The notes under the pieces are model-generated. The model did no database searches and was not told the origin of the DNA. It saw nothing but the letters and a program-made list of their open reading frames with translations. Below are positions 998 through 60,062 of a stretch of DNA of 64,000 bases, piece by piece. Position 1 is the first letter of the stretch; every line of letters begins with the position of its first letter. A program made the translations under genes and the position numbers. This DNA comes from Eledone cirrhosa (taxonomy: Eukaryota), in the NCBI GenBank assembly GCA_964016885.1, contig OZ024741.1, forward strand, positions 313,348,001-313,412,000. Reading direction: 5' to 3'.

Positions 998-1132
998 AAT
1001 GCCCAGTAGGATCGTTTGGTTTTGCTTGTAAAGGGACCTGCCATTGTATCAACAATATTAACTGTGACAAGCGAAATGGAATATGTTCAGATGGATGTTC
1101 TGAAGGTTATATTGGTGTCAATTGCCAAGAAG
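998..1132 (+). CDS. EGF-like repeat exon 1 (intact) of a multi-EGF (MEGF10/Draper/SREC-type) gene
   Basis: tttttAG|AATGC...CAAGAAG|GTatat; 135 bp, phase 1-1; ECPVGSFGFACKGTCHCINNINCDKRNGICSDGCSEGYIGVNCQE, 8 Cys. Confidence 0.8.
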
Positions 1133-2269: not shown

Positions 2270-5200
2270 GTCAGGTATTGACAATTATTTCATTGATCAG
2301 GTGAGTCTAGAGTTCGCTAATCGCTCGAAGTTGCGTCACTAGATCTCCATGGACAATATTTACTTCAGACCAACTCCACATATTACAAAAACAATTCTCT
2401 CAAGCAAGATATATAGAGAGAAATAGTGTAAATCAAAACAATAACATCAATAATAAAATATATATGACAAATAGGTAGAGAGGTTACAGGTGTAAAAAAT
2501 AAATAGTAAAAGATAAGAAAAAGGGTACAGTAAAAAAGTAAGAAAATGGAAAAAATATAAAGAACTAAGGATAAGTTAGATCAAGTAAGTACAGAATATG
2601 ATAGTGGTGGTGGTGAGTAAATGTTCGTATAAGGATTCTGTGTTGGGTTTATTCCTAACATGAAAAGTCATATTCGAAACATACATAGATACGTGTAGAG
2701 ATACTGATGTAGTGACAGATACTAGAAAAAGCATAAATTAGAGATTAATTGGGATATACTAGTATGAGATTTAAGGGCAAAGGGTGGATGGTGAAGGGAG
2801 GTTTGACAAATGTGTGTGGTAACTGTTTTGCTGATTGTCTTGTCTTAATGGGTTTGATGCTGTTTCAGGGAGAGGGGGTGAAAGAGATGTTAAGATATTT
2901 ATGATCTAGTGACCAGTTGGTCGTTTGGCATCTAAGAGCGGAGTGATGGTGTCTATTCCATACGTTGAAATTCTGGTGGTTCAGTTCTAAATTTGGTATT
3001 GTTGGCTCGAATCATGGTGGTTTAAAGTTTGTGAAATTGGTAGCTATTTTATGCCTACAGAAAAATGATCTTTCTATTTTGCTGTTAAGCAGCATCTTAC
3101 TGTACCTTAAAATATGGTATATCTCCATATTACAAAGTCTGCAGTGGGACATCCCATTGGTCGTAAGCCCTTGTTTTCGATAATTTGACCAGCTAATCCT
3201 ATATTCCTAGTTTGTGTTTTTAAGCTGCCAGATTTTATTGGCGAGCGATATAGAATACTCCAGTCTACGGTTCTTCATGGAGTGTCTGTGGACGTACCAC
3301 CTTTTTTTAACTCCCCAGTCGTGAAATCTCTGTCGTGCCAAGTAGAATTGCCTGAATTTACAGTAAACAGGTACACCATACACGAATCCACCATTCTATT
3401 TTGCAGTGTGCACTTATCAGATAGGTGGCAATTACAGTTGGAGGCTTTCCTGTGTGCCGGTTCTCCGTTGCGGTTTTGTATGTTATTGTAGATGGGTTGA
3501 TATTTAGGACTATTAGTGTTTTGTTGTGATGCGCCCTGATGTGTTTGTGATTGCGATGTTATGTGTTTGCGTTTTGTGTTTAGTGCTATGATGTATATTG
3601 GTAGGTTATTTTCTTTAGAGATGTGTTTGTGGTTGATTTTATGTATGTGTGATTCTATATTGGCTGCAGTAGAGTAATATTGTTTGATAGTTCTTCTATT
3701 AAAGATTCTATGGTATTTGAGGAGTTTAACAAAATGTTTGTCTATTAGCTTAAATAATGTAGAAGGTAGTTTGGATGTTATAGAGGAGTTGAATATTGGA
3801 TTGAACCATAGGTATTTTCTATCTCTGAATTTTCTATAGTTCTTAGCGGTCCTTATATTAGTGTTCGGTTCAGTTAAATTTGGTACTCCTTTTCTAATTA
3901 TATGCTTAGTTATATGCTTGTTATTTTTATAGGTGTGGGTTGTGTAGTTGTCGTTAGGTTTGTTGCTGCTGTCCCTATATGGTATGTATTCCAAACCCTC
4001 TTTACATCCTGCCTTATGTAAAGCTATGTTATAATTGTTTGCGTGTTCGTTAAAAATCTCTAGGTTAGAAGATAGGCGGGATATTCTGATGGATATACTA
4101 TGTGCTATGGAGTTAATTATGGATCGGGCGTGGTTTGAGTTATAACTAATGTAGGCTAGATTCTCGTTAATTTTATGGAAGGGATCTGTTAATCCTGTGA
4201 TTACTTTGAGTGTTACATCTAAGAAGTTTGATTTTTTAGAATTAAGTTCGAAAGTGATACCTAGGCCTAGTTTGTTGAAGAAGACTCTGCTGATTTTTCG
4301 TAATTTTTCCATGTGTTGATTATTTAAATTTTTGGCTTAAAGTAATCTGTCGTCTTTATAAATTCATCGCTCGAGGTTATTGAATCCCTTATGTAAATTG
4401 TGCGCTATCTATATTCCCACGAATTCCGTTACCTGTGCCGAGTCGTTAGATCCCCTTGTGATATTGAAGCTATTCTGTCTGTTCTTTCGTTCCCACTAAC
4501 TATTTTCGAATCTAATGATACTTCTCCTAGCAGCTTTGTTATTTTAATTTCGTTGGAGGTAAGGTCTGAATTTTTCTGGGCAGTGGTTAGTGCTTTATCT
4601 AGGGTGACTGGGGATATGGATGAGTAGTAGTTATTAATGTCGAGCTGTACCCAGTTGGATGTTTCTCAGCTGCCTATTTTGCTGAACCAGTCTATTGCTT
4701 CGTTAGTGTTACCCCATACCTTAATTACTAGTTCGTCCTTGATTTGTGCGATTACACTATCTAGTATATAATTGGCAATTCTACCTATATACGAGTTCGA
4801 TGGACATATTAATCTAATTGCGGGGTCTATTTCGAAATTATATTTGTCATCCTTTAGGTTAAATGTGGCGTTACATGGTGTTAGAGCGTTGGTTCTATCA
4901 TATATTTTCAGTTTTTTAGAATGCTAAGTCCTTCTTTATTAATGCTAGTGAGTGCAGATTCTGTTGTTTGTTTGTATTTGTTGTGCAGTTCACGACGTAT
5001 ACAATTATTGTATGTATTAAGGCTCATGGTGTATATGCTTCATGTTTTGTCCGCTTTTACTATAATACCGTTGGTGTTGCGTATTTTTATTTGTAGTGCA
5101 TTGATGTCGTTTTGCAATTTGTTGTGATGTGACCGTCCTTATAAATTGGTTCCACTTATCATGTTCATGAGGTCGAATCCTAAGGCATCGAGCTGGTGGT

Positions 5201-6090
5201 TATTCGGGGGATATGAATCCGTATTTTTTCCTAGTGAATTCCTCCTTGATATTAGCATGTCGTTTATCGTAATGATAGGCCTTCCATCGGATTCGAAGGA
5301 TGAAGTCATTGCTCCTTGTTTATATGTCTAGGTATGTTTTTCAATGACATACCTATGTGGTGCTTTTCCATTTTAGTGCCGTGCGTTAAGGTTGTTGCTC
5401 AACCTAGTGGGAGCTGGGTATATAGGGTAACAAGTTATCGTTATATATAATCCAGTTAGAGGTTGTGAGTACACTGCGTCATGGATAGTTTTAACGTAGT
5501 GCTTTGTTTAACTCAACAAGATGTCTCCATAGTTAGGCAAGGAGTCCGCGGTAATTCCTATGTAGATTATACTTGGAGTAATAATAGGGAAAGAATGAAG
5601 AGTAACATGGTTGGCTCTACATCAAGGGCTTTTTATGTTTCGAATATGACATTTTCATGTTAGCAATAAACCCAACAAAATCCTTATACGAACACTTACT
5701 CACCACCACCAATATCATACTCTGTACTTACATGGTCTCACTTATTCTTATTACTTTATATTTTTCCATTTTCTTACTTTTTTACTGTATCTTTTTCTCA
5801 TCTTTTACTTTTTACTTTTTACATCTGTAACCTCTCTACCTATTTATCATATATATTTTATTATTGATGTTATTGTTTTGATTATACGCTATTTCTCTCT
5901 ATATATCTTGCCTTGAGAGATTTGTTTTTGTATTATGGGGAGTTGGTCAGAGGTAAATAATGTAATGGAGATCGAGTGACGCAGCTTCGATCGATTATCG
6001 ACCTCTAGACTAACCTGATCAATTAAACAATGTCAATGACAGAAATAAGGCCAGTTTTACAACCAACCATGTAACTCTTCATCCTTTCAC
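2270..6090 (-). mobile_element. Decayed Naiad-like Penelope-like element (PLE-A) with inverted 5' pLTR
   Basis: Minus-strand RT remnants from ~5350 (MSLKNIP) through ORF 3275..4312 (NFLDVTL, SNH, WFNP, CNCx5C, degenerate GIY-YIG); ~2275-2685 is inverted relative to ~5635-6040; abuts (TA)n. Confidence 0.85.
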
Positions 6091-6113
6091 TATATATATA
6101 TATATATATATAA

Positions 6114-6195
<82 letters not shown>

Positions 6196-6602
6196 TTATA
6201 TATGTACCGTGTATGCCGGTGTAAAATTTGGTCCGCTGCATATGTCGACCCATTAAATATTGTGGTGTAAGTTATGTTGAGGCCAATATACACCGGTTGA
6301 TATGACACCCCAGGTATAAGGCATTACCATCTGCCCAGCCGTAGATATGCTAGCCGTTAACAAAATGATTTAACTGAACATGCTACCACACCGTGACTTC
6401 ACATGCGGAATTAAAAAAAAAACTAAATATTCCTTATCCAGTGTGTATCCTTATTACGTGGCGATATGATTTTACTTTCGACATGTTTTGTTTCGTGGGG
6501 GAATTACCGGAGATATTCCGATAGTTCAGATAATTCAGTGAATCAGTATAACATTCATATTATAACTATGCTATCCATGATAATATGATAGGTATATATG
6601 TG

Positions 6603-7151: not shown

Positions 7152-7217
7152 AATGCCGAGCAGAAAAACTTTGGTGTTGCTTGTAATGGGACCCGTCATT
7201 GTATCAACAATATGAAC
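7152..7217 (+). pseudogene. Truncated, frameshifted EGF exon relic (exon 2)
   Basis: Same acceptor context; +1 frameshift after CRAE; TGC>CGT; sequence switches to the RTE fragment after INNMN, so no donor. Confidence 0.75.
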
Positions 7218-11815: not shown

Positions 11816-11950
11816 AATGCCGAGCAGGAACGTTAGGTGTTGCTTGTAATGGGACATGCCATTGTATCAACAGCATAAACTGTGACAAGCGAAATGAAAC
11901 AAGTTCAGATGGTTGTTCTGCAGGTTATACTGTTGTCAATTCCCAAGAAG
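11816..11950 (+). pseudogene. EGF pseudo-exon 3
   Basis: 135 bp, ECRAGTLGVACNGTCHCINSINCDKRNETSSDGCSAGYTVVNSQE; two Cys lost; donor GT>AT. Confidence 0.75.
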
Positions 11951-20566: not shown

Positions 20567-20701
20567 AATGCCCAGCAGGAACGTTTGGTGTTGCTTGTAA
20601 AGGGACCTGCCATTGTATCAATAATATTAACTGTGACAAGCGAAATGGAATATGTTTAGATGGATGTTCTGCAGATTATATTGGTGTCAATTGCCAAGAA
20701 G
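20567..20701 (+). pseudogene. EGF exon 4, open frame but donor mutated
   Basis: ECPAGTFGVACKGTCHCINNINCDKRNGICLDGCSADYIGVNCQE, all 8 Cys; donor reads CT (GAAG|ctatct); a GC donor one base earlier would frameshift. Confidence 0.65.
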
Positions 20702-22770: not shown

Positions 22771-22895
<125 letters not shown>

Positions 22896-23298
22896 TGAGA
22901 GTATGTTTGTAAATATGTAATTATATCTATACAGTATATATTATATATATATTTGTGTGTATGTGTGTGTGTCTGTGTGTGTTTTATTTAAATGTAAGAA
23001 TGTCAAAAATACATATCGCAGTAACTGGTAGAATATGTTAATATTTGGAAGGATTATAGATAATATTTTTCTTATAATATTGTATGTTACTTTCATAATG
23101 TTATTAACATTGCATTTAATTGAACTAAAAAACCAAGTATTTTTTATAAAGGATCGATATGATATTCAATAAATCTACAACTTCAATTGTTTAACACCTG
23201 ATCACTTTAACCTTGAAATTTAATATAAAATTGTATCATTGTTATATGTATGTAATTAATGATATCTTCAACATTATCATATATATTGATATTTTTAG

Positions 23299-23433
23299 AA
23301 TGCCGAGTAGGACACTTTGGTTTTGCTTGCAATGGGACATGTCATTGTATCAACAATATTAACTGTGACAAGCGAAATGGAAGATGTTTAGATGGATGTT
23401 CTGCAGGTTATACTGGTTTCAATTGCCAAGAAG
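23299..23433 (+). CDS. EGF-like repeat exon 5 (intact)
   Basis: AG/GT intact, 135 bp; [45 protein letters not shown]. Confidence 0.8.
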
Positions 23434-23660
23434 GTATCTTATATAATTGTTACGTAATTATTATACACACGCACACACACATACACAGACCCACAGACAC
23501 ACAGATACACACATATACATATATATATATATGAAATATTTAGGGTGTATATAAAAAATACTTATAACTGCATAAGGTTTTGTATTTACATAACCATAAA
23601 TAGTATAACTAATACTATTAACTGCTCCATATCGTTGAGCTGACATATAATATTGCCAAT

Positions 23661-32747: not shown

Positions 32748-32791
<44 letters not shown>

Positions 32792-33238
32792 ATGTGTGTG
32801 TGTGTGTGTATGTGTGTGTGTGTACGTATTTGTGAGAGTATGTATGTAAATATGTAATTATATCTATACAGTATATACTATATATATATTTGTGTGTATG
32901 TGTGTGTGTCTGTGTGTGTTTTATTTAAATGTAAGAATGTCAAAAATACATATCGCAGTAATAACGGCTAGAATATGTTAATATTTGGAAGGATTATAGA
33001 TAATATTTTTCTTAGAATATTGTATGTTACTTTCATAATGTTATTAACATTGCATTTAATTGAACTAAAAAACGAAGTATTTTTTATAAACGATCGATAT
33101 GATATTCAATAAATCTACAACTTCATTTCTTTAACAAAAGATCACTTTAATCTTGAAATTTAATATAAAATTGTATCATTGATATATGTATGTAATTAAT
33201 GATATCTTCAACATTATCATATATATTGATAATTTTAG

Positions 33239-33373
33239 AATGCCCAGCAGGAAGGTTTGGTGTTGATTGTAATGGGATCTGCCATTGTATCTACAACAGG
33301 CACTGTGACAAGCAAAATGGAAGATGTTCACATGGATGTTCTCCAGGTTATAGTGGTTTCAATTGCCAAGAAG
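33239..33373 (+). CDS. EGF-like repeat exon 6 (intact)
   Basis: AG/GT intact; [45 protein letters not shown]. Confidence 0.8.
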
Positions 33374-33459
33374 GTATCTTATATAATTGTTACGTAATTA
33401 TTATACACACGCACACACACATACACAGACCCACAGATACACAGATACACACATATACA

Positions 33460-33552
<93 letters not shown>

Positions 33553-34084
33553 GTATATATATATTTATACATATATAAACAGAAATAAATTTATAATATA
33601 TACCGTATATGCCGGTGTAAAATTGTGACCCGCTGCATATCTCGACCCATCAAATTTTGTGGTACAAATCAGGTTTAGGCCTATATACGCCAGTTTAGAC
33701 GACACCCCTGGTATAAGGGTTTACCTTCTTCCCAGTCTTAGATATGTTTGCCGTTGTTTAGTTGCATCAAATAGAAAACATTAAAATAAACACTAAATAG
33801 TTGTAAAATAAAAATACACGTGAAGAAAGTACAAGTTGCAAAATTTATTTTTCAGTTAACAAAATTATTTAACTGAACTGTTATATTAGTAAACAATATT
33901 CTACCGCACCGTGACTTGATACGCGGGAATTTTAAAAGCCTAAATATTCCTTATCCTAAATATTAATTATCCAGCTTAGATGGCGATATATATTTACTTT
34001 CGACCTGTTATGTTTCGTGAGGAAATTACAGTAGTTTTCCGATAATTTAGATAATTCAGTGAATCAGTATACTATTAATACTAA

Positions 34085-35245
34085 TAGGAATCGCTTTTGA
34101 GGACAATGCAAGCTATGTACAGGGGTCCTGTCGGTAAAGTGACAATAGAAATGGAGTTTAGTGAGGAATTTCAGATACATGTAGGTGTGCATAAAGATTA
34201 GCTCCTCAGCCAATCTTATTCATTATAGTCCTCCAAGCCATAACTGAGAAGTTTAAGACTGGCTGCCCATGGGAACTTCTAAATGCTGATGATCTGGTTC
34301 TTATAGCAGATTCAGTAGAGGAACTAGAGAATAAATTCTGGCTATGGAAACAGCAGTTGGAATCAAGAGGCCTGAGAGTGAAGATAGGTAAATCAAAAGT
34401 GTTGATAAGTAGAAGAGAGGACAATGCTCTGATTCCATCGGAGAATTGGCCATTTTAGATATATAGGAAAGTAACTGGCATAAATTCCATAAAATTTACG
34501 CAATGTTGATCTTGGAGACACAAGAGATGTAGTGGGATATCAGGCTAACTAAGAGGTCGGGAAAATTACGTATGCAATAGAGGTACAGGGCACGATGGCA
34601 GTAGTAATCGCTGTGATACAATCATTTCTCCAATGCAGGTGGGTTCTAGAGAAGAGGTTGATAGCTTCCTGAACCTAGGTAATCAGATAAGCATGGGAGT
34701 AGGGTGTTCCGCGTCCATAGTATCTAGAATAAGGACGGTTTGGAAGAAGTTTATGGAGCTGCTTCTTCTTTTGTCAAAGGCGCGTTTCTCCCTGCATAGA
34801 AAATGACGGTCATATGATACCTGTGTGAGATGCGAGGATGCTGCATTATAGTTAGAAATGGACAGAAACTGCTGAAGATATGCGACGGCTGGAGAGAAAT
34901 GAAGCAAGTATGCAAAGTTCGAGGTGCAATTTTAATGTGTGTGAACGACCAAGCATATACGAGTTTAAAAGGAAACTGGGTATAAGTGGGATAAGTTGTG
35001 GTGTCAAGAGATAAGGCTGAGATGGTATGGACATATGATGTGCATGGAGGATGAGCGCTGAGTAAAGAAGTGCCAGGAAGTCCAAGTGGAGGGAAGACAC
35101 AGTAGAGGTAGACCACGAAAGACATGGGCGGCGCTGGTGAAACTCACCGAGGAGATGACAAAGGATCGTGACAAGTGGGGAAATTTCTGTGCTGAATAGG
35201 ACCCGTCCCACCGCAGGGTAAAGCGGGCGGAAAAGTGATAATAAA
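34085..35245 (+). mobile_element. RTE-clade LINE 3' fragment (unit B)
   Basis: Paralog of 28615-29750 with the same junctions. Confidence 0.85.
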
Positions 35246-35658
35246 TAAAAATGATTGTAAAGAGAGTACAATTTGCCAAATATACATTTCAGTTAACAAA
35301 ATGCTTTAACTGAACAGATTTATTAGTAAACAACATGCTACCACACCATCACTTGATACGCGGTAAATTTAAAACCTAAATATTCCTTATCCAATATGTA
35401 TCATTATTACGTGGCGATATGATTTTACTTTCGACATACTTTGTTTCGTGGGGAAATTACCGCATATTTTCCGATAGTTTAGATAATTCAGTGAATCATT
35501 ATACCATTCATATTATAACTATGATATTCATGATAATATTATAGATATAAATATGTGTATATATGTATGTATGTATTTATGTATGTATGTGTGTGCGTAT
35601 GTGTGTATGTATACATTTATATATATACAGTTTATTATAAATATATATATATATATAT

Positions 35659-38009
35659 AAATACACGTCAGTATGGATTTATACGAACTGGATTACACCC
35701 TGAAGTACATTCCAACTCACCCCAACCATGCTCACCAAAGGCTCCTCCCACAAAAAGCGCAATATATCGTCGGACGCTTAAGATGCCGAGCCCTAGCTTT
35801 TGACGGCACAATTACAGGCACCAAGAACAGCTACAACCTGAAATCAAGAGCCTACCCTCCTAAGGTATCTGAACTTGCTCCTTTCGAGACGGACCTTCTT
35901 GCCTTAGTCGCTAACATTTCCTTTCGCAAACACACTAACACCTTTCAAACTAAACTCAGAAATGATATAAAGTAATTTAGGTCTTCTAATAACACCTTCA
36001 TTATTTCCGACAAAACTAATAATATATACGAAGTCGACAACACCACTTTGCGCCACCTGGCCCATAACGCTATTACTTCTAAATATAAAAAAATCTAACC
36101 CTATGGCCTACCACGACATTAATACAGAATCCAGGGGACTTGCTGCCGACCTTAAATTAAATAAGAAGCTACAATCTCTAGCTAAGCGGGAGGCGTTCCT
36201 CATCCTGAAAGATCACAATGTAGCTTTTACTTCTAACCCCACATGTAGACTAATAAACCCGGCACGCACAGATATGGGACTAGTCAGTAAGGCCATACAT
36301 AGAAACATAGTTAAGACCATTAGGACCAAGTCCAACCTGCCCCAGTGGGAGAACAGCGACTCCGTAATTAAGTGGTTTAACTCCTTAAAATCCCAAAAAG
36401 CGAAGTTCACACAGTTTGACATTGTCGATTTTTAAACGTCGATTTTAGAGACCCTGTTAAACAAAGCGTTGGACTTCGCTACCAATTATACCACCGTAGA
36501 TGGTTTAGACAGGGAAAACGTGGCTCACTGCCGGAAAACCTTCCTCTTCAACGACGGAATAGCCTGGGCAAAGAAGTCTACAACTTCAGACCTATTCAAC
36601 GACTTCATGGGATCGTTTGACAGTGCTGACGTATGTGAATTGGTTGACATATTTATCTCAGACATATTACGTGTTAGATTCCCGGACTTCCACACGGGAA
36701 TATACCGCGACGATGGACTGATTTTATCGATCCATAAAGGTGGCCACGACTTCGACCGGTTTGAAAAAGACTTAGCTTCTACCTTCAATGAATTAGAACT
36801 TAGAATAACAGTAGCCACCAAGCTCTCTAGCGTAGATTTCTTAGACGTTAATTTAGACCTTCGCACACACACCCACAGACCCTTCCATAAATTAAACGAG
36901 AAACTCAATTACATTCACAAGGACTCATGCCACCCTCCCACTGTTTTTAGAAACTTCGTTAAGAATATCAGTAATAGAATCTCAAACCTCTCCTCTAATA
37001 AGGATATCTTTGACAGGGCGGCACCCTACTATAACAGGGCGTTGGTTAACAGCGGGTTCTCACACCCTATCACCTACTCTCCCACTAGCAAGAATACCAT
37101 TCAGAAAAGTAAGCGCAACAATAGACAAAATACGTGGTTCTCTCCTCCCGTCTCACTCAACGTTAAAACCAATGAAGGAAAAAAGATGTCTAGGCCTCTT
37201 AAATAGACACTTTCCCATAGGTCATAAATACCGCTCCATCCTTAATCGACACAAAGTTAAACTAAGATACTCCTACACTAAGATCATGAAGGCCCACATC
37301 ACCAGCAGCCCTAGCAAAAACACCCCACCAGGGTGCTCTTGCCGTAAGCACGAAGCTTGCCTCCTTCAACAGCAATGCAACACACCAGCTATAATTTATG
37401 AAGCTGTGGTCACTTCCAACCGACTAAACGAACCACAGGATCTCAAATACTATGTGGGCATGGCGGGAGGCCGATTTAAGGAAGTTTCCTGAACCACCAG
37501 TCTACCTTAAGGTACCCGGACATACATCCACGAAACTCGTGAGCAACGTATGGTCCCTCAAGGACTCAAGTATAGACTACTCCATCCAATGGAAGGCCAT
37601 AACTATGTCTAAGCCATACGCAAGGGGAAACCCGACGCGTGGCTTATGTATTGACGAACGAATAACTATTCTAAAGAGATTACGCAATAGTGATGGCCTA
37701 AACACGAGAAATGAATTTTTCACACGTGGTCCACACGTCGCCAAACACCTCTTGAATAACTACAAATCTCCGGACTGATTCCTCGTAATTTTATTTTCAA
37801 CTAACATTTTTCGGACTTTCACAGTTATCTCCCTTACGCGTCTCGCACGCATCTAGCATTGCCTCTGTGAGGTGACCGGATGTATGCGCATGCGCGTTCG
37901 TACGGTTGTCCTTCCTGTTCCTATAACCATGCCCATTACGAGCTGAGGATCTGCTAGGGTGAAACAATTGTTCTCGGTATGGTAAACTAACTGTTGTGTA
38001 AACACCACT

Positions 38010-38010
<1 letters not shown>
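35659..38010 (+). mobile_element. Naiad-like PLE-B (unit B)
   Basis: ORFs 35673..35975, 36103..36435, 36469..37206, 37010..37492, 37452..37778; GIYRDD. Confidence 0.92.
37926..37983 (+). ncRNA. Minimal type I hammerhead ribozyme, PLE-B
   Basis: Same sequence as 32439-32496. Confidence 0.75.
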
Positions 38011-38097
<87 letters not shown>

Positions 38098-38498
38098 AGT
38101 ATGTTTGTAAATATGTGATTATATCTATACAGTATATACTATATATATATTTGTGTGTATGTGTGTGTGTATGTGTGTGTTTTATTTAAATGTAAGAATG
38201 TCGCAAATACATATCGCAGTAATAACTGCTAGAATATGTTAATATTTGGAAGGATTATAGATAATATTTTTCTTATAATATTGTATGTTACTTTCATAAT
38301 GTTATTAACATTGCATTTAATTGAACTAAAAAAACAAGTATTTTTATGAAGGATCGATATGATATTCAACAAATCTACAACTTCATTTCTTTAACACAAG
38401 ATCACTTTAATCTTGAAATTTAATATAAAATTGTATCATTGTTATATGTATGTAATTAATGATATCTTCAACATTATCATATATATTGATAATTTTAG

Positions 38499-38633
38499 GA
38501 TGCCCAGTAGGAAGGTTTGGTGTTGATTGTAATGGGATCTGCCATTGTATCTACAACAGGCACTGTTACAGGGAAGATGGAAGATGTGCAGATGGATGTG
38601 CTGCAGGTTATACTGGTTTCAATTGCCAAGAAG
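38499..38633 (+). CDS. EGF-like repeat exon 7 (intact)
   Basis: AG/GT intact; [45 protein letters not shown]. Confidence 0.8.
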
Positions 38634-38721
38634 GTATCTTATATAATTGTTACGTAATTATTATACACACGCACACACACATACACAGACCCACAGATAC
38701 ACAGATACACACATATATATA

Positions 38722-38841
<120 letters not shown>

Positions 38842-39350
38842 TAAACAGAAATAAATTTATAATATATACCGTATATGCCGGTGTAAAATTGTGATCCGCT
38901 GCATATCTCGACCCATCAAATTTTGTGGTACAAATCAGATTTAGACCTATATACGCCAGTTTAGACGACACCCCTGGTATAAGGGTTTACCTTCTTCCCA
39001 GTCTTAGATATGTTTGCCGTTGTTTATTTGCATCAAATAGAAAACATTAAAATAAACACTAAATAGTTGTAAAATAAAAATACACGTAAAAAAAGTACAA
39101 GTTGCAAAATTTATTTTTCAGTTAACAAAATTATTTAACTGAACTGTTTTATTAGTAAACAATATTCTACCGCACCGTGACTTGATACGCGGGAATTTTA
39201 AAAGCCTAAATATTCCTTATCCTAAATATTACTTATCCAGCTTAGATGGCGATATATATTTACTTTCGACCTGTTATGTTTCGTGAGGAAATTACAGTAG
39301 TTTTCCGATAATTTACATAATTCAGTGAATCAGTATACTATTAATACTAA

Positions 39351-40510
39351 TAGGAATCGCTTTTGAGGACAATGCAAGCTATGTACAGGGGTGCTGTCAG
39401 TAAAGTGACGAGAGAAATGGAGTTTAGTGAGGAATTTCAGATACAAGTAGGTGTGCATAAAGGTTCGCTCCTCAGCCAATCTTATTCATTATAGTCCTCC
39501 AAGCCATAACTGAGAAGTTTAAGGCTGGCTGCCCATGGAAACTTCTAAATGCTGATGATATGGTTCTTATAGCAGATTCAGTAGAGGAACTAGAGAATAA
39601 ATTCTGGCTATGGAAACAGCAGTTGGAATCAAGAGGCCTGAGAGTGAAGATAGGTAAATCAAAAGTGTTGATAAGTAGAAGAGAGGACAATGCTCTGATT
39701 CCATCGGAGAATTGGCCATTTTAGATATATAGGAACGGAACTGGCATAAATTCCATAAAACTTACGCAATGTTGATCTTGGAGACACAAGAGATGTAGTG
39801 GGATATCAGGCTAACTAAGAGGTAGGGAAATGTCCGTATGCAATAGAGGTACAGGGCACGATGGCTGTAGTAATCGCTGTGATACAATCATTTCTCCAAT
39901 GCAGGTGGGTTCTAGAGAAGAGGTTGATAGCTTCCTGAACCTAGGTGATCAGATAAGCATGGGAGTAGGGTGTTCCGCGTCCATAGTATCTAGAATAAGG
40001 ACGGTTTGGAAGAGGTTTATGGAGCTGCTTCTTCTTTTGTCAAAGGCGCGTTTCTCCCTGCATAGAAAATGACGGTCATATGATACTTGTGTGAGATGCG
40101 AGGATGCTGCATTATAGTTAGAAATGGACAGAAACTGCTGAAGATATGCGACGGCTGGAGAGAAATGAAGCAAGTATGCAAAGTTCGAGGTGCAATTTTA
40201 ATGTGTGTGAACGACCAAGCATATACGAGTTTAAAAGGAAACTGGGTATAAGTGGGATAAGTTGTGGTGTGAGGAGATAAGGCTGAGATGGTATGGACAT
40301 ATGATGTGCATGGAGGATGAGCGCTGGGTAAAGAAGTGCCATGAAGTCCAAGTGGAGGGAAGACACGGTAGAGGTAGACCACGAAAGACATAGGCGGCGC
40401 TGGTGAAACTCACCGAGGAGATGACAAAGGATCGTGACAAGTGGGGAAATTTCTGTGCTGAATAGGACTCGTGCCACCGCAGGGTAAAGCGGGCGGAAAA
40501 GTGATAATAA
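39351..40510 (+). mobile_element. RTE-clade LINE 3' fragment (unit C)
   Basis: Paralog with the same junctions. Confidence 0.85.
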
Positions 40511-40885
40511 ATAAAAATGATTGTGAAGAGAGTACAATTTGCCAAATATAATTTTCAGTTAACAAAATGCTTTAAGTGAACAGTTTTATTAGTAAACAAC
40601 ATGCTACCACACCATCACTTGATACGCGGTAAATTTAAAACCTAAATATTCCTTATCCAATATGTATAATTATTACGTGCCGATATGATTTTACTTTCGA
40701 CCTGCTTTGTTTCGTGGGGAAATTACCGCATATTTTCCGATAGTTTAGATAATTCAGTGAATCATTATACCATTCATATTATAACTATGATATTCATGAT
40801 AATATTATAGATATAAATATGTGTATATATGTATGTATGTGTGTGTGTATGTGTGTATGTATGCATTTATATATATACAGTATAT

Positions 40886-43406
<2,521 letters not shown>

Positions 43407-43410
43407 GTGT

Positions 43411-43488
<78 letters not shown>

Positions 43489-43885
43489 ATTTGTGAGAGT
43501 ATGTTTGTAAATATGTATTTATATCTATACAGTATATATTTGTGTGTATGTGTGTGTGTCTGTGTGTTTTTTATTTAAATGTAAGAATGTCGCAAATACA
43601 TATCGCAGTAACTGGTAGAATATGTTAATATTTGGAAGGATTATAGATAATATTTTTCTTATAATATTGTATGTTACTTTCATAATGTTATTAACATTGC
43701 ATTTAATTGAACTAAAAAACCAAGTATTTTTTATAAAGGATCGATATGATATTCAATAAATCTACAACATCAATTGTTTAACACCTGATCACTTTAACCT
43801 TGAAATTTAATATAAAATTGTATCATTGTTATATGTATGTAATTAATGATATCTTCAACATTATCATATATATTGATATTTTTAG

Positions 43886-44020
43886 AATGCCGAGTAGGAC
43901 ACTTTGGTTTTGCTTGCAATGGGACATGTCATTGTATCAACAATATTAACTGTGACAAGCGAAATGGAAGATGTTTAGATGGATGTTCTGCAGGTTATAC
44001 TGGTTTCAATTGCCAAGAAG
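43886..44020 (+). CDS. EGF-like repeat exon 8 (intact, identical to exon 5)
   Basis: AG/GT intact; nucleotide sequence identical to 23299-23433. Confidence 0.8.
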
Positions 44021-44098
44021 GTATCTTATATAATTGTTACGTAATTATTATACACACGCACACACACATACACAGACCCACAGACACACAGATACACG

Positions 44099-44138
<40 letters not shown>

Positions 44139-52125: not shown

Positions 52126-52260
52126 TATGCCGAGCAGAAACGTTTGGTGTTACTTGTAATGAGACATGCCATTGTATCAACAGCATACATTTTGACAAGT
52201 GAAATGAAACATGTTCATATGGATGTTCTGCAGGTTATACTGTTGTCAATTGCCAAGAAG
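52126..52260 (+). pseudogene. EGF pseudo-exon 9
   Basis: In-frame TGA (from CGA), Cys>Phe, donor GT>AT; paralog of exon 3 (same AT donor, same upstream Helitron). Confidence 0.8.
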
Positions 52261-59927: not shown

Positions 59928-60062
59928 AATGCCAGGCAGGAACGTTTGGTGCTGCTTCTAAAGGGACTTGCCATTGTATCAACAATATTAACTGTAACAA
60001 GCGAAATGGAACATGTTTAGATGGATGTTCTGCAGGTTATATTGGTGTCAATTGCCAAGAAG
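59928..60062 (+). CDS. EGF-like repeat exon 10 (7 Cys, weak donor)
   Basis: ECQAGTFGAASKGTCHCINNINCNKRNGTCLDGCSAGYIGVNCQE; second Cys>Ser; donor GTTTTT; may be decaying. Confidence 0.55.

Follow-up and report, generated by a model that had tools for sequence, protein, structure and literature searches.

The exon array and its sister exons 6 and 7

The window analysed here, 64,000 nucleotides (nt) of the octopod Eledone cirrhosa (G000:C2:313348001-313412000, in a genome of 3.0 Gb), lies within a large array of exons that each encode one epidermal growth factor (EGF)-like repeat, and this report concerns two sister exons of that array, exons 6 and 7. A survey of 1.06 Mb around the window identified 157 plus-strand exon copies over ~0.9 Mb (C2:313.04-313.93 Mb). 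Ninety-two copies are intact with eight cysteines, four are open with fewer cysteines, and 61 are broken or partial, a class in which copy 5, a divergent intact exon, was also tallied. The numbering follows a preliminary description of the window, which underestimated the scale of the array: exons 6 and 7 are in fact copies 44 and 45. The repeat is of the MEGF/SCARF/PEAR1 type, with eight cysteines and the C-x-C and G-x-[FY]-G-x2-C spacing. It matched PDB entry 6u11 by sequence (E 6e-6) and the families PF23301 (EGF_PEAR1L) and PF00053 (laminin EGF); single array exons score under the Pfam cut-offs. The features of the window that bear on the two exons are as follows.

33239..33373, plus strand: exon 6 (copy 44), a 135-nt, phase-1/1, eight-cysteine MEGF/SCARF-type EGF-like repeat without an N-glycan sequon
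38499..38633, plus strand: exon 7 (copy 45), the sister exon, with seven differences from the array majority on its own side and no sequon
32749..38180, plus strand: duplication unit of ~5.3 kb carrying exon 6, with 96% identity to the unit that follows
38010..43464, plus strand: sister duplication unit carrying exon 7
38577..38612, plus strand: candidate conversion tract of 36 nt in exon 7, identical to a minus-strand paralog at G000:C2:311056518
23299..23433, plus strand: exon 5 (copy 43), of the same four-unit subfamily, identical to exon 8, its first 69 nt identical to copy 14
43886..44020, plus strand: exon 8 (copy 46), identical to exon 5, with downstream introns that differ by 3.5%
34195..37775, plus strand: broken retroelement-like open frames, intronic, common to the four sister units and used as neutral reference

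Both exons are 135 nt long, in phase 1/1, and bounded by AG and GT. They differ at 11 of 135 bp (four transitions and seven transversions), and all 11 differences are non-synonymous, reading from exon 6 to exon 7 as E>G, A>V, D>Y, K>R, Q>E, N>D, S>A, H>D, S>A, P>A, and S>T. All eight cysteines and both splice sites are intact in each exon, and realignment confirmed the preliminary description on each of these points. None of the changes hits a cysteine or glycine or creates a stop codon (all 11 fall in the remaining class, P ~5e-4). Nine lie in the 3′ half, an asymmetry that was reported previously and is upheld here (P 0.03). Comparison with the array majority, on which the direction of change rests, assigns seven changes to exon 7 and three to exon 6, with one ambiguous. 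Eight further non-majority amino-acid changes are common to both exons (P2, R5, D9, I13, Y18, R20, H21, and the loss of R25), and these are accompanied by at most one synonymous change.

An N-x-S/T sequon is found in 86 of the 92 intact copies and in neither exon 6 nor exon 7. Copies 59 and 159 likewise lack it, and these are the sole other intact copies with Tyr18. In a low-confidence model of a single repeat (predicted local distance difference test score, pLDDT, 56), residues 24-27 form a turn between two short strands; a Foldseek search with this model returned no matches at E<=0.001, its weak rows being EGF-containing proteins.

Substitution rates in exons, introns, and other sister pairs

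The ~5.3-kb unit has been tandemly duplicated, and since exons 6 and 7 sit in sister units, a large neutral intron reference is available for them. Their sister introns differ at 118 of 4533 sites (2.6%), comprising 11 of 299 aligned columns just upstream (3.7%, in agreement with an earlier estimate of ~4%), 50 of 2021 in the downstream part that recurs in many paralogs, and 57 of 2213 in a near-unique part. Measured against all intron sites, the 11 changes at ~99 non-synonymous sites represent a 4.3-fold higher rate (Fisher P 8e-5); measured against the nearest 299 upstream bases, the rate is 3.0-fold higher (P 0.008). Synonymous sites of the two exons match the intron rate (0 changes observed, 0.8 expected). 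No intron segment of 135 columns holds 11 differences, the maximum being 10.

Thirty disjoint sister pairs with 500 or more aligned flank columns were compared, and exons 6 and 7 stand out clearly, with 11 non-synonymous differences where 2.1 are expected. A branch model in which structural sites were held conserved favours a very high omega on the exon 6 and 7 branches. Twice the log-likelihood difference (2dl) was 8.9 for the two tips and 14.9 for tips plus stem when compared with omega 1, and 5.7 and 9.8, respectively, when compared with a background omega of ~1.9.

Selection on individual sites of the repeat

Exons of this family also occur in further clusters: on the minus strand at C2:311.05-312.96 Mb (1.9 Mb), at C2:314.67 Mb, and at C10:25.88-27.33 Mb, of which the minus-strand C2 cluster and the C10 cluster were sampled in part. 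Codon models were fitted with our own likelihood implementation (F1x4) to 72 unique intact copies and 37 unique broken copies of the array and to 17 intact copies from C10. In the array, a subset of sites evolves at omega >1 on a conserved scaffold. Model M1a places 45% of sites at omega 0.05, namely all cysteines, most glycines, F6, H15, and Y37; M2a adds 28% of sites at omega 2.5 (2dl 27.4, or 26.4 when exons 6 and 7 are removed), and the comparison of M8 with M8a gave 2dl 23.9 for the 72 unique intact copies. The C10 copies yielded omega 5.7 (2dl 33.9) at sites 2, 5, 11, 20, 24, 25, 34, and 38. In neutral simulations with heavy recombination, 2dl peaked at 20.2 in 23 runs for the array and at 15.9 in 79 runs for C10, so the array-wide value exceeds this null modestly and the C10 value clearly.

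Cysteine, glycine, and aromatic positions are under purifying selection in spliceable copies. All eight cysteines are kept in 92 of 96 open spliceable copies versus 21 of 40 broken full-length copies (72 of 76 versus 18 of 37 when unique sequences are counted), and the 37 unique broken copies show little or no conserved class. In a tree-free count, the sites picked from C10 were enriched for non-synonymous variants in the plus-strand array, with an odds ratio (OR) of 2.9 relative to synonymous variants (P 0.003) and 1.95 relative to introns (P 0.018). At residues 23-26, 19 of 27 possible changes are present in intact copies versus 7 of 27 in broken ones, and residues 20, 23-26, 34, and 38 vary fast in other clusters too. 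The C10 cluster is the second large cluster of this exon; its copies are often ~300 bp apart and mostly intact, and their residues 23-26 alternate between basic and hydrophobic types.

Gene conversion in the array

Sequence identities between distant copies show that gene conversion occurs in the array. Over positions 1-69, exons 5 and 8 have the exact sequence of copy 14, which lies 156 kb upstream, including eight non-majority alleles; this copy-14-like stretch brought three synonymous changes into exon 5. The comparison of exon 5 with exon 6 made in the preliminary description is therefore confounded, although its counts stand (21 differences, of which three are plainly synonymous and one more lies within a multi-hit codon). 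Exons 5 and 8 are themselves identical, with upstream introns ~1% and downstream introns 3.5% apart (22794-23542 and 43392-44130), the mark of recent local conversion across 20 kb.

Offsets 78-113 of exon 7, a stretch of 36 nt, are identical to the minus-strand paralog at C2:311056518, 2.3 Mb away, which also has Y23. A single conversion event from a paralog of this type could explain four of the 11 differences between exons 6 and 7. The match alone is not significant over ~209 comparisons (score 2.9), and with the tract removed the remaining seven changes at 73 non-synonymous sites still exceed the intron rate (P 0.003). Among 213 family copies examined, none qualified as the donor of exon 6 or 7, in whole or by halves; nor, among the copies examined, did one for YRED, H31, P35, S38, or the shared IYNRH segment. 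Exon 7 is at least 16 of 135 sites away from its nearest non-sister copies, and throughout the assembly a 25-mer over Y18, R20, and H21 has no match outside exons 6 and 7, even when two mismatches are tolerated. Sister pairs elsewhere toggle the same variants (D9A, N20I, and V3V).

Explanations for the divergence of exons 6 and 7

We consider it probable that positive selection remodelled the predicted exposed, glycan-free face of the repeats encoded by exons 6 and 7, in what is probably an extracellular recognition protein, and that gene conversion supplied some of the changes. The reading given in the preliminary description is supported in part; the diversifying selection that it put forward finds support in the intron-calibrated rate, the branch model, the site models for the array and C10, and the tree-free count.

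Several results weigh against this interpretation. The M0 omega is 1.03 over the 72 unique intact copies, and the other 20 intact sister pairs hold 28.5 non-synonymous (20.5 expected) and 9.5 synonymous (6.2 expected) differences (pN/pS 0.89), so that strong acceleration is local to exons 6 and 7, a pair that was chosen after the fact, as were the foreground branches. The finding of no synonymous change among 11, earlier given a chance of a few percent, has P 0.035-0.09 depending on kappa, as 19-26% of the mutational opportunity is synonymous, and is therefore weak taken alone; the contrast with the intron rate is the stronger argument. The run DKQN>YRED (four differences within 10 nt), which had been offered as a cluster, is not beyond chance (P 0.16). 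The contrast with the 299 upstream intron bases fails correction for 30 pairs, and with the 36-nt tract removed it falls to P 0.04. Standard branch-site model A returned 2dl 0 with the selected class collapsed to zero, from one start only, which may have ended in a local optimum. Taken together, non-structural sites are as variable as introns (OR 0.98), and synonymous sites are slightly less so (OR 0.71, not significant), by which omega is inflated. Broken copies give a weak M2a signal (2dl 6.6, or 14.8 with F3x4), and their non-structural sites likewise show non-synonymous above synonymous variation (OR 2.1, P 0.004). In outlying loci, the codons changed between exons 6 and 7 are no more diverse than unchanged ones among non-structural sites (P 0.32). 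The single-repeat structure model was too weak for the mapping of variable sites, which was dropped. Conversion from a more distant paralog, which the preliminary description had set against selection, is in part borne out, given that conversion is seen in the array and the 36-nt tract could cover four of the 11 differences.

The search for gene ends also counts on this side. No signal peptide, transmembrane, lectin, or protein tyrosine phosphatase (PTP) exon could be assigned to the array by tblastn or hidden Markov model searches with Octopus and bivalve relatives. None of the 82 PF00102 (PTP) matches in the genome lies in C2:310-316 Mb or C10:25.8-27.4 Mb, and the family DNA examined at closer range contained none either, although short diverged exons could escape detection. 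No galactose-binding/F5-8 exon was found on the plus strand in C2:312.89-314.13 Mb, the region farther upstream being covered by the genome search only.

The divergence could instead be a patchwork of short conversions from older diverged paralogs or alleles, in a family whose variation is already rich in non-synonymous differences, and selection specific to the pair would then be unneeded. The copy-14 stretch, the identity of exons 5 and 8 despite their diverged downstream introns, the 36-nt match with its Y23, and the toggling of D9A, N20I, and V3V all lend this some credence, as does the partial sampling of the minus-strand and C10 clusters. We nevertheless find it doubtful as the main cause: whole- or half-exon donors are missing among the copies examined, the closest non-sisters are distant from exon 7, the Y18/R20/H21 25-mer is confined to the pair, the 36-nt match lacks significance by itself, and the exon 5 conversion carried synonymous changes whereas exons 6 and 7 have none. 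Relaxed constraint is improbable as an account of the same data. It would have non-structural sites drift in a redundant array with synonymous sites somewhat constrained, and the pair would be the chance extreme of ~157 copies, in keeping with the M0 omega near 1, the intron-like rate of non-structural non-synonymous variants, the 61 of 157 broken or partial copies, the weakness of 0 of 11 synonymous changes, and the null branch-site result. Relaxation, however, cannot lift a rate above that of introns, and 8e-5 multiplied by 30 pairs is still ~0.002; the sparing of cysteines, glycines, and stop codons and the fast evolution of the same sites in independent clusters also argue against it.

An assembly error or a local mutational process, such as a G bias or conversion by edited complementary DNA (cDNA), is very improbable. 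All six changes of exon 7 from non-G bases go to G, compared with 44 of 175 in the four sister introns, a pattern noticed post hoc, and the variants of exon 6 itself were not seen in contigs from the public runs X1-X3, which cannot show absence. These runs are genomic, with contigs that cross exon-intron borders. Contigs of X1 and X2 contain an exon-7-like stretch of 109 nt with one difference (a 110-nt contig matches 38509-38617), which makes an assembly error at exon 7 unlikely, and X3 contains exon 7's own 5′ junction with no differences. A different upstream intron for the exon-7-like contig was considered and dropped, as the lengths and depths of the records are consistent with a second paralog that has 30 nt in common. 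Conversion by cDNA with adenosine-to-inosine editing was rejected, since A>G accounts for four of the 19 changes along the lineage of exons 6 and 7; it accounts for three of the seven of exon 7. A mutational process would moreover be expected to hit synonymous and cysteine sites too.

Other features of the locus

The remaining exon copies of the window are listed below.

998..1132, plus strand: copy 39, intact
7152..7217, plus strand: copy 40, truncated
11816..11950, plus strand: copy 41, donor AT instead of GT
20567..20701, plus strand: copy 42, donor CT instead of GT
52126..52260, plus strand: copy 47, with a stop codon and a lost donor
59928..60062, plus strand: copy 48, open and spliceable, with seven cysteines

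Among the intronic frames, that at 34195-34455 matched RVT_1 with E 3e-4, below the cut-off, and the remaining frames have no Pfam match. We presume the frames to be RTE-like and Penelope-like. The broken frames at 35661-37775, with motifs like those of a Penelope-type retroelement, were copied with the four sister units and have just one to three further copies in the 1.06 Mb.

In the right half of the array, at C2:313.48-313.72 Mb, there is a higher-order repeat of ~7 exon copies per ~23 kb in ~10 rounds. The pattern of intact and dead positions (by stop codon, lost donor, or 5′ truncation) is the same from one ~23-kb unit to the next. At C2:313304468-313336758, 13 near-identical intact copies lie ~2.6 kb apart beside the only assembly gap of the region (313344136); this stretch is either a recent expansion or sensitive to assembly. 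At C2:312.96-313.11 Mb, the plus-strand array and the minus-strand cluster begin head to head with mirrored exon order (a truncated copy, then a divergent DCDPG-type copy ~4 kb on), an arrangement suggestive of an inverted duplication. The interval between the two showed no gene head.

Relationship to known receptors

The closest repeats found, 61-68% identical, belong to Octopus proteins in which EGF repeats are combined with an F5/8 galactose-binding domain, a transmembrane helix, and a PTP domain (Octopus sinensis P0001, P0008, and P0012; O. vulgaris P0013, P0017, and P0020). These galactose-binding/F-type-lectin and MEGF receptor tyrosine phosphatases share with the array the eight-cysteine, 44-residue repeat pattern. 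They hold ~6-19 repeats, this type being mixed with a shorter one, whereas the array holds 92 intact copies of one type. Their likely orthologs in E. cirrhosa lie at C2:257.5 and 261.7 Mb. The lectin exons nearest to the array are at C2:314.02 Mb on the minus strand (L102:2649-2915) and, downstream, at 315.46 Mb on the plus strand (L108 ~4900-6320); an EGF exon lies 1.1 kb upstream of the latter. C16, C20, C23, and C27 hold many copies of near-identical lectin exons. These searches do not identify the array as a lectin-MEGF-PTP gene: the likely orthologs are ~50 Mb away, no PTP match is near, and the nearest lectin exons either lie downstream or are carried by the opposite strand. A search for exons that the flanks of C10 and C2 have in common yielded no terminal exon for the array.

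MEGF10/Draper/CED-1, PEAR1, and SCARF1/2 carry the same repeat type as the array, for which no EMI domain, transmembrane segment, or tail has been identified. Concerted evolution together with selection on a few residues or repeats is a feature of repeat arrays that pair a homogenised stalk with selected units, such as Drosophila Eater and NimC1, abalone VERL, PRDM9 zinc fingers, and Dscam exon arrays; these combine conversion and positive selection as the array does, but in different domains or phyla.

Clustered, hyperdiverse MEGF/SCARF-like genes resembling the array are described, in the accessible parts of two reports, as SudRes1 and as the LG5R 'scavenger class F-like receptors' of Biomphalaria, where they map to schistosome resistance (PMC12297450; PMC13712769). 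These parts describe many non-synonymous differences, loss of EGF domains, a tie to parasite resistance, and some subgroups without lectin and PTP domains (PMC12297450; PMC13712769). The diversity described there is among separate genes and haplotypes, whereas here it is among exon copies of one 0.9-Mb same-strand array that has higher-order repeats, ~60 pseudo-exons, and no known phenotype. Homology searches found no exon of the array for the signal peptide or the one transmembrane helix of a single-pass SCARF-like receptor (LG5R subgroup 1A/1E). In oysters, haemocyte types show enrichment of draper-like and MEGF transcripts, according to the accessible part of a further report (PMC13070813). 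In our literature search, which reached neither most subscription journals nor any supplements, no description of an octopod EGF exon array came up, nor one of an exon array of this size.

A mechanism for the remodelling of exons 6 and 7 by selection can be proposed. The array exons would be spliced into protein, with most repeats forming a glycosylated rod or stalk, and the few glycan-free repeats, such as those of exons 6 and 7, would expose a surface selected to change through binding a variable partner. By analogy with the snail MEGF receptors, a pathogen or non-self ligand would be the most plausible partner, given that related MEGF/SCARF-like clusters, as far as described, map to schistosome resistance and their oyster counterparts are enriched in haemocytes. 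An immune or allorecognition receptor with a ligand-binding surface, as suggested in the preliminary description, may be a suitable analogy.

A trait shared with Dscam is that the 92 intact copies are symmetric (phase 1/1) and individually spliceable by sequence. Speculatively, and with little probability, the 0.9-Mb array could be one octopod gene with ~90 symmetric EGF exons, and their combinatorial splicing would yield a Dscam-like, variable surface receptor of MEGF repeats. In it, the glycan-free exons with Tyr18 (exons 6 and 7 and copies 59 and 159) would be the units of recognition under positive selection, replenished through duplication and through conversion from clusters at megabase distances.

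Hyperdiverse MEGF receptors are already known from molluscs, and the combination of positive selection and conversion is a known one in recognition proteins built from repeats. The snail MEGF/SCARF-like clusters are candidate parasite-recognition genes, for which attention has been on whole genes and lectin domains; the present locus points to the EGF repeats themselves, at residues 18-26 and 30-38, as the diversified surface. An exon array of unusual size in a cephalopod, it bears on whether cephalopods make receptor diversity by exon arrays, be it through a giant stalked protein, several genes, or combinatorial splicing.

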